Shown here: positions 20,259-52,048 of the stretch, piece by piece | How the letters are laid out: every line of letters begins with the position of its first letter | Numbering within the stretch: the stretch's first letter is position 1 | Assembly (NCBI GenBank): GCA_043798915.1 | Contig: JAZDOG010000101.1 | Coordinates: forward strand, 1 to 64,000 | DNA length: 64,000 nucleotides | Origin: Pseudomonadota bacterium | GTDB lineage: Bacteria; UBA10199; 2-02-FULL-44-16; JAAZCA01 | Direction of reading: 5' to 3' | Made by a program: the position numbers and the translations under genes | Notes under the pieces: model-generated | What the model was told of the DNA's origin: nothing | Databases searched by the model: none | The model's input: the letters and a program-made list of their open reading frames with translations, nothing else

Positions 20259-20268
20259 GATGAAATCA

Positions 20269-20303
20269 CCCCTCCTTTGTAAGGAGGGGCAAGGGGAGGT
20301 AGA
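20269..20303. repeat. Short palindromic repeat (copy 2)
   Basis: Near-identical to 4036..4070. Confidence 0.8.
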
Positions 20304-20311
20304 CATCGAAG

Positions 20312-20370
20312 CTGTCATCGCGAGGAGCCCTTCGGCAGACTCGGGGCGACGTGGCGATCCCGTGGAGGCC
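20312..20370. repeat. Left arm of a GTCATCGCGAGG...GATGAC-type palindromic element
   Basis: Complementary to 27088..27160 (GATCCCGTGGAGGCC vs GGCTTCATGGGATC; CTGTCATCGCGAGG vs CCTCGGGATGACAG). Confidence 0.6.
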
Positions 20371-20485
20371 CGGCCATAATCCGCCGGCAAACGGTGTGCG
20401 CGCAGGGTTTTTAAGGCGGTTGCAGAGATATAAAGAGTGTCGTAGGATCATTTTTGGCGTAAAAAGACCATCTTGATGAGAACGT

Positions 20486-20699
20486 GATAAACAATGGAAC
20501 CGATAAGGTCCTCGCTTCGGCTCGCCGCCTCAGAAGTCGGCGGCTCGCCTGCGCCTCACTCGCCGAGCTTTTAGGCTTCTGTTTTCGGCTCGTGCCCCGC
20601 AGCGCGGATTCCCACGCTGCGGGACTTCGGCGTTAGATAGATCTTCCTGTCGGAAGGTCGCAGACGCCGCTCGGCACCTCATCGGTTCCATTGCTTATC
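20486..20699. mobile_element. MITE-like hairpin element, left copy
   Basis: 19-bp terminal IR with one mismatch (GATAAACAATGGAACCGAT/ATCGGTTCCATTGCTTATC); body is the reverse complement of 28538..28685 plus a ~65-bp insert. Confidence 0.7.
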
Positions 20700-20869
20700 C
20701 AGAGCCCGCCGACCGGCCAAAAGCGAGGCGTTGCGCTCGCGGGGCCCAGCGGTGTATAAATTGTGAAATTATTAAGGCTTGAGTGGTTCTCATATTTCAT
20801 GAGTAGTTGAAGCGTTAGCTCAGTGCCTTTTTGTTCCGTGATAGAAGGTTTCAACAACAGAGGATTAAA

Positions 20870-22639
20870 ATGTGGCCAGACAAAGAGTCGAGTAGTGATT
20901 ATCTAAATTTTGGAGAAGTTTCCCAGCTTGCAGTTGATATCTTAACTTCACCTCCCATGTTGCCTGTTTCTCTGGGAGTGTTTGGTAATTGGGGTGCCGG
21001 GAAGTCTTCTCTTTTGAAGTTGATCGAGAATGGTTTGCAATCGGATGGCGCGGATCGACTGGTAATAAATTTTGATGCTTGGTTGTATCAAGGATATGAT
21101 GACGCTCGCGCAGCTTTGCTTGAAGTTATAGCCAGAAATTTGCATAAGGCCGTTAAGGATAATGAAAGTCTTCTTCAAAAAACAAAAAGGCTTTTAGCCA
21201 GAGTAGACGGTTTTCGAATGCTTGGCTTTATCGCGGAGGGCGTTGCATTAGTTCATGGCGTTCCTACAGGAGGTATCCTATATCGTGGCGTTTCTGCAAT
21301 TTCAAATTTAACTGATGGCATTCAAGGCGAAGAGTATCAGGATTTAACAAGATCAGCGTCAGAAGTTATTGGAGAAGTAAAGAAGCTCATCAAGCCACCC
21401 CCCGATGAAACGCCACCACAGCAAATTGAAGCCTTCAGAAAAGAGTATAGCGAAATCCTAAACGAACTAGGCAAACCACTTATAGTAATCATTGATAATC
21501 TTGACAGGTGTCTTCCTTCAAATGCTATTCATACTCTGGAAGCGATTCGTTTGTTTTTATTTTTACCTAACACTGCTTTTGTTATTGCAGCAGATGAGGA
21601 GATGATAAGAATTGCGGTTGCAGAATATTTTAAGGGGTCGTCAGGACGACACCATATTGATTACCTAGATAAGCTTATTCAGGTTCCAATTAATGTTCCT
21701 AAAGCTGGTTTACTCGAAATTCGTTCGTACCTTTTTATGCTTTTTGCCATAGAACACGGAGTGGAAAGCGATCAACTAGAAACCTTACGTAAGGGACTGG
21801 AAGTTTCACTGCAAAGGTCCTGGAATGAAGATCCTATTTCTAAAGATGCTGCACTTAAGCTAACTGGAAAATCTGAGGATGGAAAACTAGCTACGGCATA
21901 TGAGTTGGCCGATAGAATTGCGCCAATATTAGCAACGTCGCCCATTATTCACGGAAACCCTAGAATTGTTAAACGTCTGCTCAATGTAGTAAGAATGCGG
22001 AGCAAAATTGCAAGGCGGCGTGAGATGCCCCTTAGCGAAGAAGTAATTACAAAACTAGTGATTTTTGAACGTTGCGCTGGAGTAGAGGCTACCACCGAAC
22101 TTTATAAGTTAGTTGATGCAGAATCTGGAAAACCAAAAATTCTGACTCAGCTGGAAAGTGCCGGCACAGAAGAACTTCCGTCTGATGCTCCAAATAGCTG
22201 GGGCAATAATCCCACGACCAAAAAATTCATTTTGGATTGGATAAAGCTTGAACCATCGCTCAAAGATAAAGACCTGCGTCCAGCTATTTACCTTTCACGG
22301 GAAACAATGCCTATAGGTGCCTATGTTATAGGGTTGTCTCCTAAAAGTCGGGAAGCTTTAAATACTCTGGCAAATGTTAGTGCAATCTCGTCTCCTGAGG
22401 GAAAGAAAACGGCAGAAAGCATACCATTAGAAGATAGGGTTCCTGTTATGGAGGGAATTGTTGATCATCTACGCGAAGTTGCAGATTGGTCGAAACAACC
22501 AAAGGGATTTGCTGGGGCTGTGTTGCTAGCTGAGATTTCCCCAGATGCAGCCAAAATATTTAAAAGGTTTGCCGATGGTTTAGGCAACAAGAAACCGTGG
22601 ATGAACGCTATGATTAAGGATAAAGAATGGAATAGGTAA
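20870..22639 (+). CDS. qatA: Qat anti-phage system KAP-family P-loop NTPase
   Basis: MWPDKES..DYLNF start; Walker A GNWGAGKSS; FDAWLYQGYDDA; Walker B IIDNLDRC; YLDKLIQVP; GNPRIVKRLLN. Confidence 0.88.
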   Translation: MWPDKESSSDYLNFGEVSQLAVDILTSPPMLPVSLGVFGNWGAGKSSLLKLIENGLQSDGADRLVINFDAWLYQGYDDARAALLEVIARNLHKAVKDNESLLQKTKRLLARVDGFRMLGFIAEGVALVHGVPTGGILYRGVSAISNLTDGIQGEEYQDLTRSASEVIGEVKKLIKPPPDETPPQQIEAFRKEYSEILNELGKPLIVIIDNLDRCLPSNAIHTLEAIRLFLFLPNTAFVIAADEEMIRIAVAEYFKGSSGRHHIDYLDKLIQVPINVPKAGLLEIRSYLFMLFAIEHGVESDQLETLRKGLEVSLQRSWNEDPISKDAALKLTGKSEDGKLATAYELADRIAPILATSPIIHGNPRIVKRLLNVVRMRSKIARRREMPLSEEVITKLVIFERCAGVEATTELYKLVDAESGKPKILTQLESAGTEELPSDAPNSWGNNPTTKKFILDWIKLEPSLKDKDLRPAIYLSRETMPIGAYVIGLSPKSREALNTLANVSAISSPEGKKTAESIPLEDRVPVMEGIVDHLREVADWSKQPKGFAGAVLLAEISPDAAKIFKRFADGLGNKKPWMNAMIKDKEWNR

Positions 22640-22643
22640 TAAA

Positions 22644-23396
22644 ATGGGAACATCTCAATCAAGCCCAGGTCCCGTTGGCATATCTCCCTTGGTGCCGCCA
22701 TGGGGAGATGATCAGCCACAGAAACCCTTACCCCCACCTGAACCTCGAAGGTTTGCGAGCTTTCGACAATCGCTTGGAAGCTTTGTTAAGGACAGAGACC
22801 TGGGGAAACTTAAGTCAGTGCTTGGTCACTATGCATCCACTGCATCTGGTGGTGGTAAGATAGTTGCTCGTCGCATGAACGGTGCAGCGCAGGCTGGCGC
22901 AGATCTGTATAATTTTCTCAGTGGAGTTCAAAAGTCTACTATCAAAGAGGCCGCGTTTAATTTAGCTGCATTGGCCAATCAACCATGCGAAGTGGCAATC
23001 AACATAATTGTTCAGGCGCTCACTGAAGATGGAGGAGATGCTGATAAAAATCGAGCATCCATGACAAATGCATTATGTGAAGCTCTCGATGGGATTGACA
23101 CTTTTGATCCAATGAAAATTACGGATGAGATTATCCTCACTACGATGATTTGTTTTCTGACTGAAAGTATTTTTCATCAAATAGTAATGGATGCTGGTAA
23201 AGCGTGGAACAAAGCAGACACCCCTTCAAAAGTCGTGAATGCTGAAAATGATTTGAGAGAACTTATTAAGGCAGTCGTCGATAAATATATGGCCCCCAGT
23301 TTATCAGGAAAAGTTAATTCATTTACTCGTCAGAGGATGCTTCGACTTGAGAAAGAAGTGTTGGTTAACGTATGGGCGGAATGGGAGACCTATTAG
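22644..23396 (+). CDS. qatB: Qat anti-phage system protein QatB
   Basis: Characteristic N-terminus MGTSQSSPGP...PLVPPW; position between the KAP NTPase and the QueC-like gene. Confidence 0.85.
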   Translation: MGTSQSSPGPVGISPLVPPWGDDQPQKPLPPPEPRRFASFRQSLGSFVKDRDLGKLKSVLGHYASTASGGGKIVARRMNGAAQAGADLYNFLSGVQKSTIKEAAFNLAALANQPCEVAINIIVQALTEDGGDADKNRASMTNALCEALDGIDTFDPMKITDEIILTTMICFLTESIFHQIVMDAGKAWNKADTPSKVVNAENDLRELIKAVVDKYMAPSLSGKVNSFTRQRMLRLEKEVLVNVWAEWETY

Positions 23397-24691
23397 TGAC
23401 AAGAGTGATAATTCATCATGATTGCAATAAGCTTCCACGCCAACGAAAAAGGTTGGTCTCGGTGCACATTTATGGCTTGGGCAATGGAAACTGTTCTAGT
23501 ATTGGTCATCCTCTAATCGAAAAAATTAAGCGGCTCGGTATAACACTGTCTCCGGCTGTGATGGATTTCCTTACGATTGCCTTGGCGGTTAATGCGGCTG
23601 ATTCGTTTGTTAAACGCCGAGAAATGGTTGATGGATGGACACGAGAAATTATTTTGCAGGTTTCGCTTTGTGAACCAGAGTCATGGTTAAAGGTAAAAAG
23701 TAGGCTTGAAAAAACTCTACGCTTTCTAAGCGGCGATTTATGGAAGTTGGAAATTAATGATAATGGCTTCAAACCACCCAAACCATATAGAAGCCAAGAT
23801 CGTTTTAAGTTGTTAAGATTGAAAGGGCTTGATTCTGTTAGCCTGTTTTCGGGTGGGCTAGATAGCGCAATAGGTGTTATTAATTTGCTAAATGAAGGCA
23901 AAAAACCACTTTTGGTTAGCTATGCATACAGAGGTGACAAGTCTCATCAAAACGCTGCTGAAAAGTATCTTCAAGGTGAATATTCAAGGTTTTGGGCTAA
24001 CGCGTATCCTCAATCAGCTAATGGAGAATATGAAATTAGCATGCGCACTCGTAGCATTAACTTTCTCGCCTTAGGGATAATTGGATGCTACGCTGTTGGA
24101 TATGTGAATGGTTTAAAGAATCTTCCCCTTTATGTGCCGGAAAATGGTTTTATATCACTTAATGTGCCCTTAACGCCACGCCGCATTGGTTCATTGAGTA
24201 CACGAACTACACATCCATATTTTCTATGTTCTATTGAGGAAATTTTACAATGTGTTGGCATTAATAGTAAAATAATTAACCCTTACCAGTTTCAAACAAA
24301 GGGAGAAATGGCGCAGTTATGCAGCAACCTGAATATCCTGAAGAATATGGTTTCGAAAACAGTATCGTGTGGCCACTGGAAAAGAAGGAACAAACAATGT
24401 GGCTGCTGTGTTCCCTGTATAATAAGGAGGGCGGCTATTAAACAAGCTGGATTGAATGAACCTGCACTATATCATTTTCAAGACCTTAAGAGCGTACTTA
24501 ATGACGATAATACGAAAGATGACCTCTTTGCTCTTTCAAACGCAATATCTCACTTGTCATCGCGAAATATAAACTCATGGATAATGAATAGTGGGCCTAT
24601 ACCATCGAAGCAATTTGAAGATTATAAATCGCTCTTTACGCGAGGATTGAAGGAAGTCGAAAGTTTCTTGCTGGGCGAGCATGTATTATGA
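23396..24691 (+). CDS. qatC: Qat anti-phage system QueC-like protein
   Basis: DFLTIALAV..AD..DGWTR, PP-loop LFSGGLDS, RTRS, PENGFISLN, STRTTHP, NPYQFQTKGEM, SCGH..CGCCVPCIIRR. Confidence 0.9.
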   Translation: MTRVIIHHDCNKLPRQRKRLVSVHIYGLGNGNCSSIGHPLIEKIKRLGITLSPAVMDFLTIALAVNAADSFVKRREMVDGWTREIILQVSLCEPESWLKVKSRLEKTLRFLSGDLWKLEINDNGFKPPKPYRSQDRFKLLRLKGLDSVSLFSGGLDSAIGVINLLNEGKKPLLVSYAYRGDKSHQNAAEKYLQGEYSRFWANAYPQSANGEYEISMRTRSINFLALGIIGCYAVGYVNGLKNLPLYVPENGFISLNVPLTPRRIGSLSTRTTHPYFLCSIEEILQCVGINSKIINPYQFQTKGEMAQLCSNLNILKNMVSKTVSCGHWKRRNKQCGCCVPCIIRRAAIKQAGLNEPALYHFQDLKSVLNDDNTKDDLFALSNAISHLSSRNINSWIMNSGPIPSKQFEDYKSLFTRGLKEVESFLLGEHVL

Positions 24692-24773
24692 CATTAATGT
24701 TAATCTCTACTCAAAATCTGATTCACCGTGTCACTTTGTTAAAGACGTAGAAATGCAAGGAGCGATAAACAAT

Positions 24774-25892
24774 ATGAAAAGTTCTGAAGCAACCAAGTTA
24801 AACATCGATTCATCACCGTCGATTTTGCCACGTCCAATACTCGTGGCAAGCTTTACTCAGAGAATGGATTCGTGCCTGTCTGGTGACTCCCTACAACCTC
24901 TCCTCCTTCTCGGCAACGCACGAACCGTCCTTGACCAATTCCCTACATCATCCATCGATTTTGCTATGACCTCGCCGCCATATTGGGGAAAACGTGAGTA
25001 TGAAAGCGGAGGTATTGGTCTTGAGAATAACTACGGGGATTTCATCCGTAATCTGTCGGATGTGTTTATGGCACTTTCTCGTGTTCTTAAACCAGAGGGC
25101 TCATTCTGGCTCAACATAGGCGACACTTACCAGGATAAAAAATTGGTGGGTATTCCTTGGAGGGTAGCACTAGAACTTACAGATAAACAGGGCTGGATTC
25201 TTCGTAATAGTGTAATCTGGAATAAAATCAAGAGTGGAATGGACAACACTAAAGATAGGCTCGGAAATATTCACGAACATGTATTTCACTTTGTTAAACA
25301 ACCAAAATATTATTACGATGCTGATGCTATTCGCTCAAAACCAAGAGAGGCACGAATAGTGAATGGCGCTGTTGTATCTGCTACCGGAGTATCAGGCGTT
25401 CGCTACAAGCGACAAATCGAACTCTCTACATCATTGAATAAAGAGGAAAAACAGGCGGCTTCCAAGGCGTTGAGCCAGATTCTGACAGATGTAGGTGCAG
25501 GAAAAATCTCAGATTTTCGAATGATTATTCGCGGACAACAACGTGCAACACACTCTGACAAAGAAAAGGTGTCAGGAAGGGCAAAGGAATTGCGTGATAA
25601 AGGATTCTACTTCCTTCGGTACCATCCAAACGGAAGCAAGCCAGCCGACGTGTGGGATATTATGCCAGAAGATACACAACAAAGGAAGATGCATTATGCA
25701 TCGTATCCAGTCGACTTATGTCGGATTCCTATTCTTGCAACTTGTCCTCCCGGAGGCGTGGTGCTCGATCCGTTCTGTGGAACCGGTACAACACTTATTG
25801 CAGCTCGTAACCTTGGGCGAAAGTCAATTGGAATTGACATATCAAGTCAATACCTGAAAATTGCGGAGGAAAGATGCACGACGCTTCTATGA
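24774..25892 (+). CDS. Site-specific amino-DNA methyltransferase (beta class, probably N4-C)
   Basis: Motif IV TSPPYW precedes motif I VLDPFCGTGT; start uncertain (24681, 24753 or 24774). Confidence 0.92.
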   Translation: MKSSEATKLNIDSSPSILPRPILVASFTQRMDSCLSGDSLQPLLLLGNARTVLDQFPTSSIDFAMTSPPYWGKREYESGGIGLENNYGDFIRNLSDVFMALSRVLKPEGSFWLNIGDTYQDKKLVGIPWRVALELTDKQGWILRNSVIWNKIKSGMDNTKDRLGNIHEHVFHFVKQPKYYYDADAIRSKPREARIVNGAVVSATGVSGVRYKRQIELSTSLNKEEKQAASKALSQILTDVGAGKISDFRMIIRGQQRATHSDKEKVSGRAKELRDKGFYFLRYHPNGSKPADVWDIMPEDTQQRKMHYASYPVDLCRIPILATCPPGGVVLDPFCGTGTTLIAARNLGRKSIGIDISSQYLKIAEERCTTLL

Positions 25893-26740
25893 GTACAGTT
25901 GTCGAACTATTTGGTCATGCCGTTGATAGCCAGCGGAAAGATTGGGCACGTGTTGTACGTAATCAGCAATGTCCATTTTTAGAAAAGACATGTTACAAGG
26001 TTCGAAAGAGCGATCCTAATATCTCAATAGGTTCATGTACTGTACTCTACGGTAGGACCAAAGAACCTGTTGTTATCTGCCCAACACGCCTTCTTGAACG
26101 ACACCAGATATTCACCGATTGCTTGCATCTTTTAACCATGCATGAGCCGGGGAATGAGCTCCACATTATTCCCGAAGTTTCAATACCTGGTGGAAGCGTT
26201 GATTATTTCTTGGCTTCCGCGCTAAAGGGAAAGGTAAAAGATTTCGTTGGTATCGAGATTCAGACGTTGGATACTACAGGTACCGTGTGGCCGGAACGTC
26301 AGCGACTGCTCAAAAAACTTGGAATTCCGCGTAGAGACAAAGAAGAGTTATCCAACAAGTCCTACGGTATGAACTGGAAAATGACCGCCAAAACGATCTT
26401 AGTCCAGATGCACCATAAGATTCAAACTTTTGAGCATGTCAACAAAAAGCTAGTACTTATCTTACAGGATAAACTTTTCCAGTACATGACTAATGAATTT
26501 ACATTTGGACATTTAAATAAACCGGCAATCCTGGGCGATTCAATGCATATGCATGTGTATCAATTAGAAAAGCAGGTTAACCGACTGTTTAAGTTAGGGA
26601 TGAATGCTCGATTAAGCACGGACTCCGAAGGAATTGCGGCATGCCTTGGTCTCCAAGCGGAAGCTCGAGTTGAGTTGACTCAAATTGTTGCTGCTCTTGA
26701 AGCGAAGCTATCTCCAAGCACGCTTCTCAAGCCAGTATAA
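25889..26740 (+). CDS. NotI-family type II restriction endonuclease
   Basis: Four-Cys cluster CPF..C.K...GSC...CPTR, followed by PD-(D/E)xK-like VDYFL...GIEIQTLDTTG and GMNWK; ATGA-coupled to the methyltransferase. Confidence 0.8.
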   Translation: MSTVVELFGHAVDSQRKDWARVVRNQQCPFLEKTCYKVRKSDPNISIGSCTVLYGRTKEPVVICPTRLLERHQIFTDCLHLLTMHEPGNELHIIPEVSIPGGSVDYFLASALKGKVKDFVGIEIQTLDTTGTVWPERQRLLKKLGIPRRDKEELSNKSYGMNWKMTAKTILVQMHHKIQTFEHVNKKLVLILQDKLFQYMTNEFTFGHLNKPAILGDSMHMHVYQLEKQVNRLFKLGMNARLSTDSEGIAACLGLQAEARVELTQIVAALEAKLSPSTLLKPV

Positions 26741-26878
26741 CTGTGGTTGTTCCAAAAGGCATCGGCCTTAGAAAAAGAGTTTCCCGATGTGGAAGTTGTT
26801 GAAGATGTTGGTTTTTAAATGGGGGTGCTGCAAAAGTGGTCAGTTGTGAGCAATTGATGCAGATGTTATTTCAGCGCG

Positions 26879-27061
26879 GTTACTGAGGACTGCATAACTT
26901 ATTGCGCAGATGACACAGGATGATGAGCCGAGACAAGGAAGATGAGCAAAAAGCGCGGAGGCGTAGCCATAGCTACGTTGAGCACTTTTTGCGAAATCTG
27001 ACGCAGTCGCAGGCCATCAGCCGAAGTCAGATGTGTAATAAGTTATGCAGTCCTCAGTAAC
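26879..27061. mobile_element. MITE-like element with 25-bp perfect terminal inverted repeats
   Basis: GTTACTGAGGACTGCATAACTTATT ... AATAAGTTATGCAGTCCTCAGTAAC; internal hairpin CGTAGC-CATA-GCTACG; non-coding. Confidence 0.8.
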
Positions 27062-27087
27062 ATATGCTAACCAAACGGTGCGAGCTG

Positions 27088-27160
27088 GCTTCATGGGATC
27101 CCCGCGGCGCTCCTCGGTTGCCACGATCTCCATGGCAAAACCCGCGCCTCGGGATGACAG
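27088..27160. repeat. Right arm of the split palindromic element
   Basis: Complementary to 20312..20370. Confidence 0.55.
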
Positions 27161-27290
27161 GCAGGGGGAGAAATGAGCAGTTTGCTCGTTCATTCAAGGC
27201 CGACTGGCTGATTTGCTCCTGCCACTAAACCTCCGGCGGGCAGGTAGGGCGCGGCAATCGGGGGAGAGCAAGAGACCTAGAGGCCATAAT

Positions 27291-28304
27291 ATGAAACTAG
27301 TCAAACGATTGGATAATCAATTCGCCGAAGTTGTAAGGATGATTCATGAGGCCCGGTACAATGCTATCAAGAGCGTCAACACCGAGCTGGTCAAACTATA
27401 TTGGAGCATAGGCGGGTATGTCAGCAGAAAGATCGAATCCGCGGAATGGGGCGATGCCGTTGTGGACAGCCTTGCCGATTTCATTCAAACTAACGACCCG
27501 GAATTTAAGGGTTTTACGCGACGGAGCCTTTACAGGATGCGCCAGTTTCATGAAACATACCCGCAGAAGAAATTTGTGTCGGCAGTGCTGACACAAATCA
27601 GCTGGACCAACCACCTGCTCATACTCTCCAAAACTAAATCAATGGAGGAGCGTAAATTTTACCTGATGTTATCCGTGAAGGAAAAATATAGTTCGCGCGA
27701 GCTTGAGCGTCAGATAGACAGCGGTTATTATGAACGAGCAATGCTTTCCAGGAAAAAAGTGTCGCCAGCGCTGATACAAATTCACCCTGGTATAACAGAC
27801 GTTTTCAAAGACATCTACGTTTTGGATTTCCTGAGTCTCCCAGCGATGCACAGCGAAAAAGACCTTCAAACAAGTATTGTTGCCAATTTAAGGGACTTTA
27901 TCCTTGAATTCGGCAAGGATTTTACATTCATCGGCCAAGAATATCGAATTCAAGTGGGTAAGAACGACTATTTCATTGATCTTTTATTCTTTCACCGAGG
28001 ACTGAAATGTCTCGTTATGATCGAATTGAAGATAACCGATTTTAAGCCGGAGTATCTTGGCAAGCTGAATTTCTATTTGGAAGCGCTGGACCGCGATATT
28101 CGAAAAGAGGGAGAAAATCCAAGCGTAGGCATTATTCTATGCAAGTCAAAAGACGATGAAGTTGTGGAATACGCGCTCAGCCGCAATCTATCGCCTGCCA
28201 TGATTGCTGAATATAAAACAAAGCTCATCCCTAAAAAAATATTGCAGAAGAAGCTACACGAGTTGTTTATGCTAAACGAACCAGACATAAAGAATGACAG
28301 GTAA
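27291..28304 (+). CDS. DUF1016/YhcG-family PD-(D/E)xK nuclease
   Basis: LYWSIG, WGDAVV, SLYRMRQF, SSRELERQI, FKDIYVLDFL, IDLLFFHR..IELK, GKLNFYL. Confidence 0.92.
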   Translation: MKLVKRLDNQFAEVVRMIHEARYNAIKSVNTELVKLYWSIGGYVSRKIESAEWGDAVVDSLADFIQTNDPEFKGFTRRSLYRMRQFHETYPQKKFVSAVLTQISWTNHLLILSKTKSMEERKFYLMLSVKEKYSSRELERQIDSGYYERAMLSRKKVSPALIQIHPGITDVFKDIYVLDFLSLPAMHSEKDLQTSIVANLRDFILEFGKDFTFIGQEYRIQVGKNDYFIDLLFFHRGLKCLVMIELKITDFKPEYLGKLNFYLEALDRDIRKEGENPSVGIILCKSKDDEVVEYALSRNLSPAMIAEYKTKLIPKKILQKKLHELFMLNEPDIKNDR

Positions 28305-42261: not shown

Positions 42262-44693
<2,432 letters not shown>

Positions 44694-44697
<4 letters not shown>

Positions 44698-45521
44698 CGC
44701 GTAAAATTACAATCGGTGTCATGGTCTGCATCGTTCTCTTTAGCCTGCAGGGCTGCAAGCCCAGGGGCTTTGATGCGGATTTCAAAGCGGCAGAGGCGGC
44801 GGTCGGAATTGGCGACAACGACGGCGCGCTGAACGCCTACCGCGCCGTGGTCGATCGCTACCCGGCCGATCCGCGCCGGTGCGGCGTCCTCCTCAAGATC
44901 GCAGATATCTACGACACCTCCCTCCACGACGACATCTCCGCCGCCCGCGCCTATGCGAGGGTGATAAAGGAATATCCGCTCTCCGATGTGTCGGTGCCGG
45001 CTCGCGAGCGCCATGCGCTGCTCATGGAGAAGAAGGGCGATTTCGACGGCGAGATCGAGGACTATTCCGATCTGCTCAAACACTTTCCCGAGAGCCCCGA
45101 CAGATACAGATACCGCGTGCTCATGGCCGGCGCTTATCTTTCTCAGCGGAACTTCGGGCAGGCCAGGATGGAGATCAAGCCCCTGCTCGATGACAGACAG
45201 ATTCCGCCTGAGGTGCGCGAGCAGGCGCTCTTCGTCGCCGGCGAGAGCTTCTTTCTCGAGGACCATCCGGAGAAGGCCGCGCCATATTATCAGCAGATGC
45301 TCAGGGAGTTCCCGAATTCAAAGCTGGCGTCCGAGGCCGAGCTCCACTTCGCGACGTGCGCCGAGGAGATGGGCTATCTTGGGACGGCCCGCGACATCAC
45401 GAGGGACGCCGCACGCGACTATCCCAACAAAAAGGTGATCGATGCGAAGCTCAAGAGCATAAAGGAGCGGGCCACAAAGCACGCCGAGCCGGCACCGCCG
45501 GCAGGACAGAAGAAGCCCTGA
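44694..45521 (+). CDS. TPR lipoprotein (BamD/CpoB-like)
   Basis: Lipobox LQGC; repeats of the type Y..V...YP.S. Confidence 0.8.
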
Positions 45522-45596
45522 ACCATCTAAAAAGCGGTTTACAAACAGCGCCACCATGGGTTAGCCTCCGGCGCCTTGAAAGGAAAAGGAGATCAT

Positions 45597-46031
45597 ATGG
45601 CAAACGAACGCACGCTGGCCATAATCAAGCCCGATGCCCTCGAGAAGGGGATCATCGGCGAGATATGCAGGAGGATCGAGGACGCCAGCCTCAAGATCGT
45701 CGGCATGAAGATGTTGAAGCTTGAGCGCCAGCGCTCCGAGGGTTTCTATGCCGTCCACAAGGGCAAGGTCTTCTTCGAGAGCCTCACCAAGTTCATGACA
45801 TCCGGCCCCTGTGTCGTGATGGCGCTCGAGGGTGCAGGTGCGATCAAGAAGTGGCGCGAAACGATGGGTGCCACGAACCCGGAGGAAGCGGCCGAAGGGA
45901 CGATACGCCGCGACTGGGGGACGAACATCGAGCGCAATGCCGTGCACGGTTCCGACGCCCCGGACACAGCAAAGTTCGAGATCGCATATTTCTTCGAGTC
46001 GAATGAGATAGTGCAGTATGAGTGGGTGTAG
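45597..46031 (+). CDS. ndk: Nucleoside diphosphate kinase
   Basis: [24 protein letters not shown]. Confidence 0.97.
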
Positions 46032-46052
46032 AACCCGTCGCTCGTGACTCGT

Positions 46053-46121
46053 GTGTATCAAATCATCGACCATACCGCCGATGCAGGCCTCTGGCATGCG
46101 CAGGTGATCTTCGACATCTGA
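46053..46121 (+). pseudogene. Archease remnant: 22-codon ORF joining the N- and C-terminal motifs
   Basis: GTG-YQIIDHTADAG-LWHAQVIFDI-stop; DHTAD and terminal VIFDI are archease hallmarks. Confidence 0.7.
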
Positions 46122-46186
46122 AATCCCCTTTTAAAAGTCCTTTAATGTCAATAACTTGAACGCCGGGAAACGTCCCCTGCATTTTT

Positions 46187-46215
46187 CACGCAACTTTGTC
46201 TGAAACCCGCCGATA
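46187..46215 (+). promoter_or_regulatory. Putative sigma28-like promoter (copy 2)
   Basis: CACGCAACTTT-N11-GCCGATA(A); GCCGATAA is the FliA -10 consensus. Confidence 0.6.
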
Positions 46216-46259
46216 AATGAGGTGGAGCAGAACCTTCCCCTGTTTATCAGGAGGTAAAG

Positions 46260-48500
46260 ATGGCGGTCTGTGGAAGGAATCGAATCAAGTGCAAAACCTT
46301 GGCTGATCTTCCGGTCTGCGACCCCCAAAAGGACTGGAATTTGCTCAAGCTTGACCCGCTCAGCATGGAGACTCCGGAGTGGATGGGGATCGATCACCTG
46401 CTTGTAAATAAGACCGCCACTCGAGGCACGGTCCTTCGTTTTGTCCGACCGGAATTATTGGAAGATTTGAAAGCGTCGTTATCCGAAGGATTTCGCCCGA
46501 CCGAACCTGCAGAGCTGGATGAATTCATATCCCAGGATACTGTCAGAGCACACGGATATGCCGGCTTCTGCAAATCTACGCATGTGATTAAGGATGATGG
46601 CAGGCAGCTGTGGGGCGTATACAAGTGGCACGGCACTCCCAGTGAATATCTCGCTGTTTTCAACAAGTACAATTCCGACAAACACATCCAGATGGAGTCC
46701 AACGGTTTCGAACTCTCCGTCGAGGAGATGACGGGCTTGATCGGGGCGCTGAAACTCGGAAGCAAGGACTACTACTGCGACGGAGATGGTTGTCCCCGCG
46801 AACTGCCTGTCCAATCGCAGAGCGCCTGCGGATCCAACTACACCAAGGGCACCTATTTTTTCACATCGAAACCCGAACGCCTCAATAACCTGATCGAGAT
46901 GCTCGGGAAGAAAAAAGAGGGGGATGGCTATCAGCTGAAGGTCGGCGGTCTCGCCGATCTCCGCCGGGAGGAGTTGATCAAACATTTGAAGGACATCCTG
47001 CCCAAACCGTCGGAGCAGAAAACGCCACAGTACGTATGGTGGCTTGTTGGCACCAATTTCCTGGTGGCTGCGGCCATCGTGGGCCCCCAGCTCAAGGAAC
47101 TCTATCGGTGGTGGAGGGGCAGGGTGAAGACGGTGGATTTTGGGGCCATCGTGAAAAAGAAGATCGAGGCCGATTCCTCATATACGGTGAAGGGCCGCGA
47201 GGCCGAGGCGAGGGAGGCCTGGAAGATGACGGACGCGGATCCAGGAATCGATGAATTTCCGCATCTGCTGATCGATCTCGCGACCGGCGAGGGCAAGGAC
47301 AAGCTTTACGAGGAGATGATAATCCTCAAGGAGAAGGGCGACCCGTCCGTGCCGGAAAGATGGCGGAACGCCGCCGTCGTGGATGTGGATCCTGCCAGCT
47401 TTCAGTCCGACACCAAATGGCGCGGCAATGTGGCCGACAAGGTGACCGAGATCGGGGAAAAAGCCAGGAAGGGCCCGTTGGTAGTGAGGATGCGCGAAGG
47501 GGATAAAATATTCCTGAGCGGGGGGGCTTCAAGCAGCGACTCCGAGGTGGTCGCCGGGCTCATGCTCGCGAAGCTGGAGGAGCCAGGGGTGCGCGAAAAC
47601 CTCCTTCTGGTGATAACCACGAGCCGCGGCGATGAGATGATTGCGAAACATCCGGATCTTTTCCGCCGCTTCAACAAGCCCGGGCTTCACATCTTCAGCG
47701 TGGCCGAAGTGATCGATGCCCTCGACGGGCCCACCAGGAAGGCATACGAAAAGAAACGAGGCGTCAAGATTCCGCGCGAGGTTATCGGCGCGGCTGCGCG
47801 CATTGCTGAATCCTATTACCGGCCATCGAGGGTCGTCGTGAATGCAACGACAAGAAAAGAGTTCATGCTTGCGCGCTTCGACGCCACGAAGAACCTCCTG
47901 TCCGATGCCGCAAAGATGGCCGCGAAACGCGGCAAAGGAACGGTTGTCACGGTCAGCGACGTCATCGCCGCGGCAGAGGGGCGCATCGGCAAAAAGCTCG
48001 ATCACGGTCAGGTCGAGGCCAGGATCGAAAAAGAAAGAGGGGTGGAGGAGGCGGCCAAGGCCAGGGCGGGCACGGAAGCGGCGCCAGCAAAGGGTGGTGC
48101 GCCTGTGTGCAGGGCGGACGAGGCCCCTGGCGAGCGGCCGGCTCCCGTTGATAACAGGACTGAGGCCTTGCGCCTTGTGATCGTTGCAGACAGAGAGTTG
48201 TCCACCCGGCTGCCGCGATACGACGATTTGCCTGAGGCAAGAAAAAGAGCGATTGTGGACTGCTTATATAAAACTTTGTTGGATAATGGCTTCAGGCAGA
48301 CATATGTCCGGGATGGCAGAATAACGGCTGGGGGCTTAGAACAATTGATCGCTCGCGTAAAAGGGTATGCATCAGTCGCCGCGCCGGAAGGGCCGGTGCG
48401 TCCTGAACGAGCGGCCGATGCTGATGGTGCTGATAAGGATGGCAGAAAAAAGGACACTGAACGTGATAAGGGGCGAAGGGGCGAAGTTCCGGGCAAATAG
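46260..48500 (+). CDS. Orphan membrane-anchored protein with a degenerate ClpA/B-type AAA+ domain and shared C-terminal module
   Basis: SD AGGAGG; Cys-containing N-domain; TM segment YVWWLVGTNFLVAAAIVG; Clp NBD1-like region 47187..47912. Confidence 0.75.
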   Translation: MAVCGRNRIKCKTLADLPVCDPQKDWNLLKLDPLSMETPEWMGIDHLLVNKTATRGTVLRFVRPELLEDLKASLSEGFRPTEPAELDEFISQDTVRAHGYAGFCKSTHVIKDDGRQLWGVYKWHGTPSEYLAVFNKYNSDKHIQMESNGFELSVEEMTGLIGALKLGSKDYYCDGDGCPRELPVQSQSACGSNYTKGTYFFTSKPERLNNLIEMLGKKKEGDGYQLKVGGLADLRREELIKHLKDILPKPSEQKTPQYVWWLVGTNFLVAAAIVGPQLKELYRWWRGRVKTVDFGAIVKKKIEADSSYTVKGREAEAREAWKMTDADPGIDEFPHLLIDLATGEGKDKLYEEMIILKEKGDPSVPERWRNAAVVDVDPASFQSDTKWRGNVADKVTEIGEKARKGPLVVRMREGDKIFLSGGASSSDSEVVAGLMLAKLEEPGVRENLLLVITTSRGDEMIAKHPDLFRRFNKPGLHIFSVAEVIDALDGPTRKAYEKKRGVKIPREVIGAAARIAESYYRPSRVVVNATTRKEFMLARFDATKNLLSDAAKMAAKRGKGTVVTVSDVIAAAEGRIGKKLDHGQVEARIEKERGVEEAAKARAGTEAAPAKGGAPVCRADEAPGERPAPVDNRTEALRLVIVADRELSTRLPRYDDLPEARKRAIVDCLYKTLLDNGFRQTYVRDGRITAGGLEQLIARVKGYASVAAPEGPVRPERAADADGADKDGRKKDTERDKGRRGEVPGK

Positions 48501-48511
48501 GAGGACATGCT

Positions 48512-49327
48512 ATGACGGTATACAATATTGATCCGACGACAAAAGTTGTGCTGGATGGTCCATACCAAGGGGAGATCGTGGCGCCCTGCTCCGAGCTCTC
48601 CGGCACGATGCGCCTGCCTGATGTGCTCTTGTCCAGGGATGAAGGCGTGGCGATACGTTCCCGGCACAATCTGAACACATCGCAATTCCATCTGGATATC
48701 GAGTCGCCGGTGAATGGTGTTTACTGCATGGCGTATAAAAATCCCTCGATGAACAAGTCGTTCGTTGACAATTTCAAGTGTTCCTACGTGGGAGAATCGC
48801 CCGTGATGGCATGGTTCCGCGACTTGGTGCCTTTTATGGAGACATCCAGATGCTCGACAGTGAAAAAGGGCATGAAGCCTTTTCTTCCGCACGAGGAGCC
48901 CGGGGAACTCGCTAAACTCTGGGATGGCACTCGCAACGGTCTGACGTTTGCCGTTGGCATGGCCATCGTGGACAGGGTGCTGAAGAGGTATGCCGGCTGG
49001 TCTCCGCTGGAATCGGCTTTGAAGACTGCCGCAAACTGGATGGGAAGGGGTGGGCCTGGGAGCGCAGGCGGCGCGGGCGGTGCAGCAAGCGGCGCAGGCG
49101 AAGGCTCCGGGGCCAGTGGGGCGCCACCTGCTGCCGAGGCCCCCGGAGGTCCTCCACAATCAACTTTCAGTCTTCCTTCGATCCCTGTTCCAACGCCGGA
49201 AGAAGCCGCAAAGATAGGAACATGGATGTTGATTATGGGGATTATGGGAATTATGCTCGACAGTGCATTGAAGGCAGCGTGTCCAGTCTTTATAATAAGG
49301 CCCGCCGAAGAGAGAGTGGAGGCCTAA
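48512..49327 (+). CDS. Orphan protein with hydrophobic segments and a Gly/Ala-rich linker
   Basis: SD GGAGG; co-oriented in the cluster; no family recognised. Confidence 0.7.
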   Translation: MTVYNIDPTTKVVLDGPYQGEIVAPCSELSGTMRLPDVLLSRDEGVAIRSRHNLNTSQFHLDIESPVNGVYCMAYKNPSMNKSFVDNFKCSYVGESPVMAWFRDLVPFMETSRCSTVKKGMKPFLPHEEPGELAKLWDGTRNGLTFAVGMAIVDRVLKRYAGWSPLESALKTAANWMGRGGPGSAGGAGGAASGAGEGSGASGAPPAAEAPGGPPQSTFSLPSIPVPTPEEAAKIGTWMLIMGIMGIMLDSALKAACPVFIIRPAEERVEA

Positions 49328-49352
49328 AGATAGTTGGAATGGAGGAAGTCCT

Positions 49353-50729
49353 ATGGCTGGCCCAGATGGCAAAATACCCAAGGCACCTGGTTCGCCTGGC
49401 GTCGAAATCGATAGTGATTATGCACGCCAGTTAGGTTGCAGGCCGGGTGAAGAAGATCCTCCCGCCGATGCATGCCGGACTGCAATAGAGCCTGACAGGT
49501 ATACGTCGGCGAGCCTCCCCACTCCGCCCCCCACTGCTCCATTTGCACCGCCAGGGCGTTTTGCGCCTGCCCCGCCAACGGCATCAAACGCAGCAAGCGA
49601 GGCAGCGACAGCTACAGGCTCGGCGGTCTCCGGGAAAGGCCCTCTCGAGACTGCCAGGTTTTTTAGAGAACTCGCTGCCGAAACTCTGCAGGAAACAAAG
49701 AGGCCAGGCGTAAATGTATCCGCTTTAGAGGCGCAGGCAGCTGTGCTTATTCTCGACGCGGTTGTATTGGAGCAGGAAAATGGCGGGTCAAGCGCGCGAT
49801 TTACAGGGGGACTCAGGCAGGTTGCAAAAAATAGAGCCGATTCCATTTTAGATGAAGCCCGCAGGGCACAGAGGTCAGGAGCGGAGAGGTTGAGGTCAAG
49901 CGACGACGGGAAATTCTCCGAGGGGTTGGATTTAATTATGGCCGCCAGCAGAGGATATGATCTAGCGCGCCTGCTCTTCGAAACCATCGATCTTGACCTC
50001 GAGAGCGCAATTCGTGGCTCGGAGCAGGTTGATTTCTTGAGGAAGGCGGCGGAAAAAGCGTTTTCACGCAAGAAGTATCTACAACAGGCCCTCGACTTGT
50101 TTGACCTGGCTTTGCAAGCAAGCGGTGGCAGTGGTGATTCCCTGGAAAAACTCAGGATTATAAGAACCCAAACCGGAGGTACCAAGAAGCTTGTGAGATT
50201 CTATCAAAAAGCGCTTTCTTCGCCTGTTCCGCAACTTTTACAGCAACGACAATTTTCTTTGCCTGGATACGACAATGCCGGGCCTGTAGATATGAGCAAG
50301 GCTTTTGCGAATTTACGTCGTTTCAGGATTGCTCCGGACTCTCCTCTGCCGCCTCAAGCCTTGCCGTTGGCAAGTTCCCCGCAGACGCTCGAGGCTGAGG
50401 CCATCAGTCTTACGGCCGATGCAGTCAGTGAGTTGCCCAGCCGGTTGCCGGGATACCGCGATTTGCTTCCGGAGAGAAAGGCAGAGATTGAGGGCTCCAT
50501 ATATAAAAATTTATTGGATGGGGACTTCAGGAGTGCATATATCCGTGATGGCAGAATAACGGCTGAGGGTTTCGAACAATTGGCTGCCCGCGTAAAAGGG
50601 TCTGCATCAGTCGCCGCGCCGGCAGGGCCGGTGCGGCCTGAGCGAGCGGAGGATGATCGGCCGGTCAGGGACGACAGGGATGGCAGAGAGGACGTTGAAC
50701 GCGCAAAGGGCAAAGTTTTTGGCAAATAG
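49353..50729 (+). CDS. Orphan helical protein with shared C-terminal module
   Basis: SD GGAGG; Pro-rich N-terminus; C-terminal ~100 aa paralogous to 46260..48500. Confidence 0.7.
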   Translation: MAGPDGKIPKAPGSPGVEIDSDYARQLGCRPGEEDPPADACRTAIEPDRYTSASLPTPPPTAPFAPPGRFAPAPPTASNAASEAATATGSAVSGKGPLETARFFRELAAETLQETKRPGVNVSALEAQAAVLILDAVVLEQENGGSSARFTGGLRQVAKNRADSILDEARRAQRSGAERLRSSDDGKFSEGLDLIMAASRGYDLARLLFETIDLDLESAIRGSEQVDFLRKAAEKAFSRKKYLQQALDLFDLALQASGGSGDSLEKLRIIRTQTGGTKKLVRFYQKALSSPVPQLLQQRQFSLPGYDNAGPVDMSKAFANLRRFRIAPDSPLPPQALPLASSPQTLEAEAISLTADAVSELPSRLPGYRDLLPERKAEIEGSIYKNLLDGDFRSAYIRDGRITAEGFEQLAARVKGSASVAAPAGPVRPERAEDDRPVRDDRDGREDVERAKGKVFGK

Positions 50730-50791
50730 GAGATGGAGTTTCGAGGCATTCCAGTGGGCCGATCCCGAAATGCTGAAAGAAATGCTGAATC

Positions 50792-50829
50792 AGGGGACGT
50801 TTCTCCCCCCGAAAAGAGAAACGTCCCCT
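50792..50829. repeat. Hairpin AGGGGACGTTTCTC...GAGAAACGTCCCCT between convergent genes
   Basis: 14-bp perfect inverted repeat; one arm recurs at 46167..46179. Confidence 0.65.
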
Positions 50830-50857
50830 TTATCCTGGAGAGGTGTGACTTTGGTTG

Positions 50858-51988
50858 TTAGAATATGAGCTGATATTTAGTTGCCGGTCCCTTCCCCTTT
50901 TTCTGCAGAAAGCGTTCCTCCAGCAATATATTCAAGGCATAAACCGCGGTGCGCCGCGGAATTTTAGTGTATTTCACAACATCCCCTGTGCCGAGCTTTT
51001 CTTCCGGATGCTCCTTGAAACAGGCAAGGACCTTCCTGGGCGCCTCTGCCAGACTCAGGAAATCATCGTATCTTCTGGCGTAGAATTCAATGTCATGCCG
51101 CAGAGCGGCGGAGATCATTTTGAGCATGAAGGTCAGGAAATATTCGATTTTGTATTTCTTCGGGTCCTGCAGGAATCTCCCTTTCGAACACTTTCTCAGG
51201 ACCAGATAATATTCCTCCTTGTTCTTTTCGATGTGCCGGTCGAGCGCGATATATGGCATGATTCCAGCCAGGTTTTTGTCGTCTGACTGAAGGATTGCGA
51301 GGGCAAAGAGACTTCGCCCGATGCGTCCGTTTCCGTCCTGAAAGGGATGTATTGCCAGAAAACGGAAGACGAGTTCGCATGCGACGGCGATGCTCCATGG
51401 ATGCGCCTTGAGATTTGCGTTGTACCAGTCGATGAGTTCATGCATTGCCGCGATCGTGACCGGGCCCGGATCGGCAGTCTTGAGGACATCCTTCACTGTG
51501 TTGGTGCCCAGGATCATCTCGATCACGCTGTTCGGAGAGGTCTTGTATTTGCCGAGGTAATGCGCAGCAGGAGGGTAAAAACGGAGCAGCTCGGCATGCA
51601 GTCCTCTGACGGTCGTTTCCGAGAGCGGAAACAGCTCTCTCGCCTGCGCATAGACGATGGTGAGCATATTGCGGCAGCCAGCGACCTCCTCGACGCTCCT
51701 CTCGCTCTCTTTCGAGAGCTTGTTTTCGATGTATTTCTTTTTCTGAATGAAGGCGGTCGGCCTGCCGTCCTGGCTGAGCATTTCATCCATCCAGTCGATT
51801 TCGACGTCAGTGAGGATGGCATTTTCGATCCTGGTCGTGGAGCCTATCGTGCTTATCAGGGCATATCTATGAATTGACTGTTGATGGTCAGGGGAGAGGG
51901 TATCGAGAAATGCCCGCTTTTCAGCAGATAAATCAGTGATTTCTTTAAGTTTTTTTGTCAGATCGTCTGTGATGTTGAAAGAAAGCAT
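50858..51988 (-). CDS. Fic family protein with C-terminal HTH
   Basis: Fic motif HPFQDGNGRIGR; N-terminal inhibitory-type STTRIEN; C-terminal winged HTH (IPRRTA...GKGPATKY). Confidence 0.93.
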   Translation of the reverse strand: MLSFNITDDLTKKLKEITDLSAEKRAFLDTLSPDHQQSIHRYALISTIGSTTRIENAILTDVEIDWMDEMLSQDGRPTAFIQKKKYIENKLSKESERSVEEVAGCRNMLTIVYAQARELFPLSETTVRGLHAELLRFYPPAAHYLGKYKTSPNSVIEMILGTNTVKDVLKTADPGPVTIAAMHELIDWYNANLKAHPWSIAVACELVFRFLAIHPFQDGNGRIGRSLFALAILQSDDKNLAGIMPYIALDRHIEKNKEEYYLVLRKCSKGRFLQDPKKYKIEYFLTFMLKMISAALRHDIEFYARRYDDFLSLAEAPRKVLACFKEHPEEKLGTGDVVKYTKIPRRTAVYALNILLEERFLQKKGKGPATKYQLIF

Positions 51989-51999
51989 GCAGATAGATT

Positions 52000-52048
52000 G
52001 TGCAATATTGTGCAACTATATGCAACTATTTATTGCACAATATTGCAC
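52000..52048. promoter_or_regulatory. Operator-like inverted repeat upstream of fic
   Basis: GTGCAATATTGTGCAA / TTGCACAATATTGCAC perfect 16-bp IR with additional TGCAA repeats. Confidence 0.65.

Follow-up and report, generated by a model that had tools for sequence, protein, structure and literature searches.

The BID domain, together with the positively charged tail that follows it, forms the bipartite signal of VirB/VirD4 type IV secretion and is found in Bartonella Beps, alpha-proteobacterial toxins and relaxases, as outlined in PMC6509941. The X-Tfe effectors of the Xanthomonadales carry the XVIPCD, which is described in the relevant part of PMC8740702 as a VirD4-interacting C-terminal domain with an alpha-alpha-beta-beta-beta fold and a glutamine-rich tail. 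In type IX secretion, the C-terminal domain is an immunoglobulin-like beta-sandwich, according to the outline given in PMC11285876. Here, we analyzed a C-terminal module with a charged tail that is shared by two proteins, W746 and W458, encoded on a stretch of 64,000 nucleotides (the window; contig JAZDOG010000101.1 of assembly GCA_043798915.1, a Pseudomonadota bacterium). A first-pass annotation of this sequence had proposed that the shared ending marks both proteins as effectors of an undescribed delivery system. We find instead that the module is a new domain family on a small, lineage-confined superfamily of mostly membrane-anchored proteins, and we tentatively read module and tail as a common handle by which the subunits of an envelope complex specific to this lineage would dock in the cytoplasm. 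The features concerned are as follows.

46260..48500, + strand: W746, 746 amino acids; N-terminal Cys-motif region, one membrane helix, degenerate AAA+ body resembling ClpA/B-D1, module and tail
47031..47087, + strand: predicted membrane helix of W746, residues 258-276, YVWWLVGTNFLVAAAIVGP
47346..47819, + strand: AAA+-like core of W746, residues 363-520
48147..48377, + strand: folded part of module copy A; modelled by AlphaFold2 (segment 48138-48497) as four helices with a short hairpin
48378..48497, + strand: tail of copy A; 40 residues, predicted to be disordered, charged, ending in PGK
48498..48520, + strand: stop codon and the ~20 nucleotides (nt) common to the copies, taking in the ribosome-binding site and start of the next gene
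49353..50729, + strand: W458, 458 amino acids; Pro-rich N terminus with a vestigial Cys motif, no membrane helix, orphan body, module and tail
50382..50612, + strand: module copy B, folded part, aligned to copy A; E 1.8e-36 against profile A4
50613..50726, + strand: tail of copy B, ending in FGK

In a BLASTP comparison, residues 628-739 of W746 and 342-454 of W458 were identical at 61 of 113 positions (54%, E 2e-26), and no second segment of similarity below E 1 was returned for this pair. The peptides quoted in the first-pass annotation lie where it had placed them. At the DNA level, the similarity runs from ~48160 and ~50395, respectively, to a few bases beyond the stops, and GGCAAATAGGAG, which spans both stops, is identical in the two genes, as had been noticed before. 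Both tails are indeed highly charged, with ratios of Lys plus Arg to Asp plus Glu (K+R/D+E) in the last 30 residues of 10/8 for W746 and 9/10 for W458, and inspection of the sequences confirmed that neither protein has a hydrophobic N-terminal signal. The W746 open reading frame (ORF) is preceded by an AGGAGG ribosome-binding site.

The genome holding the window (G000; 2.34 Mb in 105 contigs, 97% complete) contains five copies of the module rather than the two seen initially, and all of them are C-terminal. The other carriers in this genome are:

C31:25190-27949: C31_919, module carrier of 919 amino acids
C31:27950-29353: C31_467, module carrier of 467 amino acids
C71:14841-16991: C71_716, module carrier of 716 amino acids

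Searches were made with profile A4, built from 13 sequences, and with the narrower profile A3, built from 5. With A4, a module match at E<=0.001 was obtained in 9 of the 22 genomes of the order, namely in 8 of 13 genomes of the window's own family and in 1 of 4, 0 of 4 and 0 of 1 genomes of the others. No module match was returned by the narrower A3, the only profile used there, in 39 genomes sampled from the rest of the class. Among 1.84 billion representative proteins, A4 gave 27 matches at E<=0.001, 24 of which were judged on reading to be credible clusters; P0017 and P0019, which are leucine-rich-repeat-like, and P0020, which is a tandem repeat, were rejected. The matched stretch stops within 45 residues of the protein end in 18 of the 24 carriers. 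The other six have a further region between the module and the basic end, and three of these contain a second, weaker module copy. Searching genome contigs with A3 yielded 326 pattern matches, none of which was confirmed, and a related-locus search found no locus with P0011 and only its own contig with P0010. A profile search, as the first-pass annotation had suggested, thus does recover the module at or near the C terminus of proteins with differing bodies (5 in G000, 24 credible of 27 overall); the carriers, however, make up one superfamily and are not the unrelated proteins that it expected. The module is old, since it occurs in 9 of the order's 22 genomes and its 24 clusters include carrier-specific lineages.

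Two cassette proteins, encoded in L105 (G005:C14, 3739-6072, + strand) and L102 (G007:C97, 1245-3734, - strand), contain a weak, divergent module-like stretch that reads W-F...L, then F..A.....G. Since these weakly matching proteins still end in GGK or SRK, the module family extends beyond what the profile detects.

AlphaFold2, given copy A (segment 48138-48497) with a 13-sequence alignment, modelled module residues 4-80 as four helices (4-24, 33-48, 50-56 and 64-80) in the order helix-helix-helix-hairpin-helix, with the two-strand hairpin falling at a conserved D-G-x-I-T. The predicted local distance difference test (pLDDT) score was 88-94, by block, over most of this region. Residues 81-116 and 118-120 of the segment scored below 50, and the tail is therefore predicted to be disordered. 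Conservation is highest in the folded part, where Gly residues are near-invariant and the D-G-x-I-T hairpin is located. Tails of 30-110 residues are found across the carriers; they are rich in K, R, D, E and G and vary in sequence between genera, yet their extreme C terminus stays conserved. The last residue is Lys or Arg in 23 of 24 carriers (Arg in about one quarter), and the last two are [G/V/P/I/F][K/R] in 21 of 24, compared to a background of 20% and 5.8%, respectively, among 1250 G000 ORFs of at least 300 codons; the carriers are related to each other and hence are not independent trials. This terminal pair survives even where the remaining tail cannot be aligned. In their last 30 residues, the G000 tails are near charge-neutral (K+R/D+E of 10/8, 7/9, 9/6, 8/8 and 9/10), and tails outside G000 are net basic (14/4 in P0007, 10/1 in P0022, 12/3 in P0024 and 13/3 in P0030).

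No clear counterpart of the module was found among known families and folds. The 13 module sequences gave only eight unrelated single-member matches in Pfam at E<=10 (E 0.03-0.17), with no BID or secretion-signal family, and NCBIfam families and PDB sequences gave no match. Foldseek returned no PDB match at E<=0.001 (best E 1.7), and VIA-align against 48,161 chains reached a best Z of 7.4, with sigma-factor region 2, SRI and MLLE domains among the rows, all within the helical-bundle background; no BID structure was among the rows returned by either program. An Atlas search gave no usable feature match (TM<0.5), and the domain is described in none of the titles and abstract openings listed in full-text literature searches, a weak negative given that a nameless domain escapes a word search. 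The module represents a new domain family that is absent from Pfam, has no relative in the PDB and comprises only 24 clusters among 1.84 billion proteins. With more than two copies and no match to a known catalytic or structural domain, neither of the objections that the first-pass annotation raised against its own proposal holds. As a homodimer (residues 1-88, two copies, alignment A4), the module was predicted with a score of 0.36, against a mark of 0.42, which speaks neither for nor against a dimer.

Several known functions were considered for the ending and rejected. The D-G-x-I-T stretch appears not to be an EF-hand, as the other ligand positions are not seen in the sequence. An ssrA-like degron was dismissed in view of the tmRNA tag of G000 itself, ANTEPMALAA, which ends in LAA, unlike the tails. 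An encapsulin cargo-loading peptide was discarded after a search for the PF04454 shell gene gave 0 matches in G000. Covalent attachment to peptidoglycan via a C-terminal Lys is known from Braun lipoprotein; here, Arg stands in the last position of about one quarter of the carriers, and the module is predicted to lie in the cytoplasm.

The upstream parts of W746 and W458 had been taken to be unrelated. While their bodies do differ, W746 belongs to a membrane-anchored subfamily resembling ClpA/B-D1 and W458 keeps a vestige of the Cys motif, and the carriers are one small lineage-confined superfamily, mostly membrane-anchored, rather than unrelated proteins. Their bodies are of the degenerate ClpA/B-D1-like AAA+ type (W746, C71_716, P0010, P0014, P0016 and P0018), TPR-like (C31_467 and the P0007 type) or orphan, and small carriers of 240-310 amino acids have no body at all. 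An N-terminal Cys cluster and the motif G-[I/L/V]-C-[R/Y]...[W/Y]-x-[Y/F] before the helix are held across the subtypes. W458 and C31_467, which are 47% identical over their first ~55 residues, have a V-C-R...D-R-Y vestige and a Pro-rich linker without the helix; when the membrane-anchored TPR-like subtype (A6) was compared to these two proteins, the module alone aligned. Neither residues 60-345 of W458 nor the body of C31_919 has a relative among 5.8 billion clusters. A model of the small subtype (A7) had a mean pLDDT of 57, its N-terminal part being weakly predicted as beta-alpha-beta-beta (pLDDT 62-77). The carrier bodies contain no recognisable toxin or enzyme domain. PADLOC matched no defence family in the carriers, and PHROGs returned AAA-type matches only, plus two marginal families of unknown function (E 0.002-0.008).

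Residues 363-520 of W746 match NCBIfam ClpA with E 8.1e-5; within the same subfamily, P0010 matches ClpB at 1.6e-24 and P0016 matches ClpA at 1.4e-23, and AAA_lid_9 was found in P0010 and P0018. The subfamily matches D1 only, at positions ~135-456 in the models of both ClpA and ClpB; Clp_N, AAA_2 (D2) and protease domains were not returned. Instead of the canonical Walker A GxxxxGK[ST], subfamily members have GK followed by D, A or G (GEGKD in W746, compared to GVGKT in ClpB of G000), and instead of the Walker B consensus hhhhDE they have MREGD, FPEF, FIDH, FIDG or ISEI, with W746 lacking the D-E pair. Gly-Lys of Walker A is retained in the AAA+ bodies of the W746 and C71_716 subfamily, as are a TT/TS resembling sensor 1 and the finger Arg. 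To judge from these motifs, the bodies seem to bind nucleotides and to hydrolyse them little, if at all.

A candidate membrane helix was seen in 18 of 22 full-length carriers, with a mean hydropathy of at least 1.7 in 15, and several of these helices are moderately hydrophobic and rich in Gly, Ala and Ser. That of W746 is weaker than most of its relatives' helices (best 19-residue hydropathy window 1.44). Within the 15-residue flanks, Lys plus Arg is more frequent on the C-terminal side in 16 of the 18 proteins, with two ties (25 residues on the N-terminal side vs 59 on the C-terminal side in sum; 3 and 5 in W746), and 60 carrier Cys residues lie before the helix, as opposed to 13 after it. 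Taken together, the flanking charges, the distribution of Cys and the nature of the bodies (AAA+ and TPR-like) suggest that the N-terminal domain faces outward and that module and tail lie in the cytoplasm. W458, C31_467 and C31_919, three of the five G000 carriers, have no membrane helix.

Comparison of bodies and modules revealed that the two have had different histories. W746 and C71_716 are old paralogues that are 23% identical in the body and 56% in the module. By comparison, W746 and P0014, which comes from another genus, are 38% identical in the body (E 1e-57) and their modules cannot be aligned by BLAST, and C71_716 and P0016 are 33% identical in the body and 31% in the module. In a maximum likelihood tree of 23 modules, the five from G000 group together (support 93/91), with a very long G006/G011 branch unresolved inside their clade; in the rest of the tree, carriers of one type have modules that branch together (support 95/96 for the small type, 90/89 for the TPR-like type, 99/98 for the P0011 type and 91/89 for one AAA subtype). 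Synonymous divergence (dS) among the G000 copies is 0.18-0.49, and the DNA encoding the tails of the two adjacent C31 carriers is 92% identical. At three loci, the similarity does not end with the stop codon but covers another ~20 nt, in which the ribosome-binding site and the start of the following gene lie (compare TAGGAGGACATGCTATG after W746, TAAGATGGCATGCTATG after C31_919 and TAGGAGAACATGTTGTG after C71_716). From the body and module identities, the tree, the low dS and the similarity past the stop, we conclude that the G000 modules have been homogenised by conversion, or have recently spread, across genes with long-diverged bodies. This homogenisation largely accounts for the impression of one tag on unrelated cargo, as it makes dissimilar G000 proteins look tagged. 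The ratio of nonsynonymous to synonymous divergence (dN/dS) of the folded part is about 1 (0.57-1.66 for 10 pairs of ~80 codons each), a value subject to the short sequences, codon bias and mosaic conversion.

The window genes carrying the module form a cassette with the gene for W271, beside the synteny anchors:

42262..46031, + strand: synteny anchors gyrA (42262-44697), a TPR lipoprotein gene (44694-45521) and ndk (45576-46031)
48512..49327, + strand: W271, partner membrane-protein gene, without the module

In the window, ndk, W746, W271 and W458 follow each other in the same orientation, the last three with gaps of 11 and 25 nt, and the product of the TPR lipoprotein gene has TPR and YfiO-like Pfam matches. 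GyrA of the window shares at most 66% identity with the proteins of the named genomes listed, which belong to several phyla. G007:C97 has the order gyrA (79% identical), ndk, a small module protein, an AAA-like protein of 829 amino acids and a W271-like protein. On G012:C5, gyrA, the TPR lipoprotein gene, ndk, an archease gene and a small module protein are followed by an AAA-like gene of 891 codons, a W271-like gene and a module protein of 534 amino acids. The cassette beside gyrA-ndk is chromosomal, conserved in a second genus and vertically inherited. In W271-like proteins, an N-terminal domain containing two invariant Cys is followed by a hydrophobic segment, a K-G-P-K-D-P-P motif, a Gly/Pro-rich stretch and a second hydrophobic segment. 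Relatives of W271 are encoded directly 3' of module-bearing or AAA-like genes in G004, G006, G007, G011 and G012. A W271-like profile (A8) matches 10 of the 22 genomes of the order; module and W271-like protein occur together in 8, the module alone in 1 (G003, a weak match at E 9e-4), the W271-like protein alone in 2 and neither in 11, counts that we give without a test, since kin are not independent. In six of the eight genomes having both, the two are on one contig and at most 6 kb apart. A promoter and terminator scan of 45500-51200 showed nothing above shuffled sequences that bears on operon structure.

Some neighbouring features were also observed. Between ndk and the cassette, the G012 genome has an archease gene for 138 residues (Pfam Archease, E 6.3e-39); at 46053-46121 (+ strand), the window has a 22-codon remnant, VYQIIDHTADAGLWHAQVIFDI followed by a stop, which matches the first and last residues of that archease and looks like an internal deletion that kept start and stop. 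Convergent to the cassette end is a Fic-domain gene (50858-52015, - strand; Pfam Fic, E 2.7e-14), the product of which matches PADLOC SoFic over nearly its whole length (E 4.8e-30) and is because of this match a candidate single-gene anti-phage defence protein. Directly downstream of C31_919 lies an IS200-like Y1 transposase gene (C31:24085-24813, - strand; Pfam Y1_Tnp, E 6.9e-7). The C71_716 locus is flanked by large orphan paralogues of 1628 (C71:17177-22063, + strand) and more than 898 amino acids (C71:24817 onward), which are 25% identical over 370 residues and have a Gly-rich N terminus and a C-x-x-C; no Pfam family was found in the 1628-residue protein. Positions 20001-28000 of the window have a G+C content of 0.42-0.48, compared to 0.55-0.65 elsewhere in the window, and may be an island of foreign origin.

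No marker of a type IV or type VI secretion apparatus was found in G000. This genome gave 0 matches for VirB4 (PF03135) and VirD4 (PF02534), both of which were matched in control genomes, and 0 matches for the type VI secretion sheath VipB/TssC (PF05943). It holds one FlhA, one FtsK, five ATPases of the type II secretion type and four secretins; to our knowledge, none of the secretion systems found in G000 reads C-terminal domains. A secretin gene (853-residue frame) beside a GspE-type ATPase gene (574-residue frame) is located at C98:64765-67363, just past the window end and ~14 kb downstream of the cassette. Altogether, with a module predicted to be cytoplasmic, bodies not recognisable as enzymes, a vertically inherited cassette and no type IV or type VI secretion markers, the proposal that the carriers are effectors of a delivery system is not supported.

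We therefore return to docking, the reading that we tentatively prefer. In its full form, a carrier consists of an N-terminal Cys-motif domain, one membrane helix and a variable body, followed by the 80-residue four-helix module and a disordered tail of 30-110 residues that ends in a small or hydrophobic residue plus Lys or Arg. The folded domain and the tethered terminal motif would bind one common partner, or each other, and in this way differently equipped cassette subunits would be assembled, with the W271-like protein, into one complex at the membrane. As every copy would need to fit this one partner, gene conversion would keep them alike within each genome. On this reading, to which we commit ourselves, the module does not address proteins to a type IV-like secretion system. 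Several points nevertheless weigh against docking. Both the partner and the binding are putative, and the topology is read from sequence statistics only. It would be unusual for N-terminal domains of 250-390 residues to be translocated outward when they lack a signal peptide. The architecture is not uniform either, since three of the five G000 carriers lack the helix, and these would hold the N-terminal motif and the module in one compartment. A dN/dS of about 1 shows no clear purifying selection between copies, unlike what a tightly constrained docking surface would give, and would be in keeping with a protein engaged in an arms race. Among 5.8e9 clusters, the W458 and C31_919 bodies remain singletons, as interaction proteins that evolve fast typically do. 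Finally, a folded domain, a flexible charged tail and a conserved terminus are also the layout of bipartite type IV signals, as these are outlined in PMC6509941 and PMC8740702.

Module and tail could accordingly be a bipartite C-terminal translocation or targeting signal, BID- or XVIPCD-like, for an unrecognised route of export or insertion, perhaps built by the cassette's own membrane proteins, and the carriers would then act as effectors after export, with some of them inserting into a target membrane. In the outlines of PMC6509941 and PMC8740702, known signals combine a folded part of ~80-120 residues, a flexible tail of 26-42 residues or more and a constrained end. The diverse bodies, two of them singletons, the dN/dS of about 1, the existence of carriers without a helix and the moderate hydrophobicity of several Gly/Ala/Ser-rich membrane helices would all fit this picture. 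We still consider it unlikely: VirB4, VirD4 and VipB/TssC were not found in a genome that is 97% complete and has a single FlhA and a single FtsK, the N-termini are conserved as well, and the charges and Cys residues point to a resident membrane protein with its module facing the cytoplasm. Moreover, no toxin or enzyme domain can be recognised in the degenerate AAA+ and TPR-like bodies, the cassette occupies a syntenic chromosomal site next to gyrA-ndk in two genera, and the G000 tails are approximately charge-neutral rather than positive. Doubtful to a greater degree is the possibility that the cassette encodes its own undescribed route for protein export or insertion, with the module and its tethered [G/V][K/R] terminus as the signal. 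In that case, the pseudo-AAA+ and W271-like proteins would be the receptor or conduit, the fast-evolving W458, C31_467 and C31_919 would be the cargo, and the idea of the first-pass annotation would be right in kind, the machinery being unrelated to type IV secretion.

The tail might, alternatively, matter more than the module. If its basic-tipped disordered end bound a polyanion (acidic lipids, RNA or DNA, or ribosomes) or served as a regulatory or degradation handle, each protein would be tethered or tuned independently and no common protein partner would be needed. The strongly basic tails outside G000, the predicted disorder and the nearly invariant terminal Lys or Arg are in line with this possibility, which we regard as quite improbable, since it is the folded part, with its near-invariant Gly residues and D-G-x-I-T hairpin, that is best conserved. 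The G000 tails are in addition charge-balanced and unlike the LAA end of the tmRNA tag of the same genome, and independent tethers would leave the homogenisation of the folded part within a genome unexplained. As for the similarity being a functionless by-product of recent local partial duplication or conversion, the low dS (0.18-0.49), the dN/dS near 1 and the extension into non-coding sequence past the stop are what such an event would leave behind. This we consider very improbable: the module is spread over 9 of the order's 22 genomes and over 24 clusters that include carrier-specific lineages, its fold is predicted with high confidence from 13 sequences, and both position and terminal motif have been conserved.

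The cassette beside gyrA-ndk, with the W271-like protein and the pseudo-AAA+ subunit, provides a testable set of partners for the module. If docking is correct, the shared ending would be a natural example of a folded domain, a flexible tail and a two-residue terminal motif that together hold a multi-subunit envelope complex of one uncultured lineage, with gene conversion keeping the copies compatible. If the ending is an export signal, it would represent a new kind of C-terminal signal in bacteria that lack non-flagellar type III, type IV and type VI systems. In both cases, the tiny size of the family and the lack of cultured organisms limit the practical reach.

Of the described endings, the BID domain with its tail resembles the one analyzed here in that proteins with differing N-terminal parts end in a helical domain of ~100 residues and then a short charged tail. 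The module is, however, shorter (~80 residues), its tails are of 30-110 residues and mixed charge, and no sequence or fold match to BID was returned; the net positive charge of a BID-type tail is seen in the relatives' tails, whereas those of G000 are charge-balanced. VirB4 and VirD4 were also not found in G000, and most carriers are membrane-anchored with a module predicted to be cytoplasmic. The XVIPCD shares with the present ending a folded region, a flexible tail of variable length, a conserved physicochemical character of the end and diverse bodies, as far as it is outlined in PMC8740702. In contrast, the module is predicted to be nearly all-alpha, its tail is rich in K, R, D, E and G, and it has no match in Pfam or the PDB. 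X-Tfes carry recognisable hydrolase domains and are accompanied by immunity genes, which the module carriers do not and are not, and VirD4 was not found. The beta-sandwich C-terminal domain of type IX secretion differs from the module in fold, the latter being predicted to be helical.

Other parallels come from cytoplasmic and membrane proteins that are not secreted. The NWETF pentapeptide of chemoreceptors, which recruits CheR and CheB, and the acidic tip of SSB are docking motifs on flexible linkers. As in our carriers, a disordered linker ends in a short conserved motif; those of the chemoreceptors and of SSB recruit a shared partner to many different carrier proteins in the cytoplasm. Unlike the ending analyzed here, these motifs have no dedicated folded domain next to them, and the terminal motif of the module is [G/V]-[K/R]. 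With regard to the body, the W746 subfamily aligns to the D1 AAA+ ring and the lid domain of ClpA and ClpB, from which it differs in its single AAA+ domain, altered Walker A (GK[D/A/G]) and degenerate Walker B. FtsH is a membrane-anchored AAA+ protein, and in W746 the AAA+ body likewise comes after the membrane helix.

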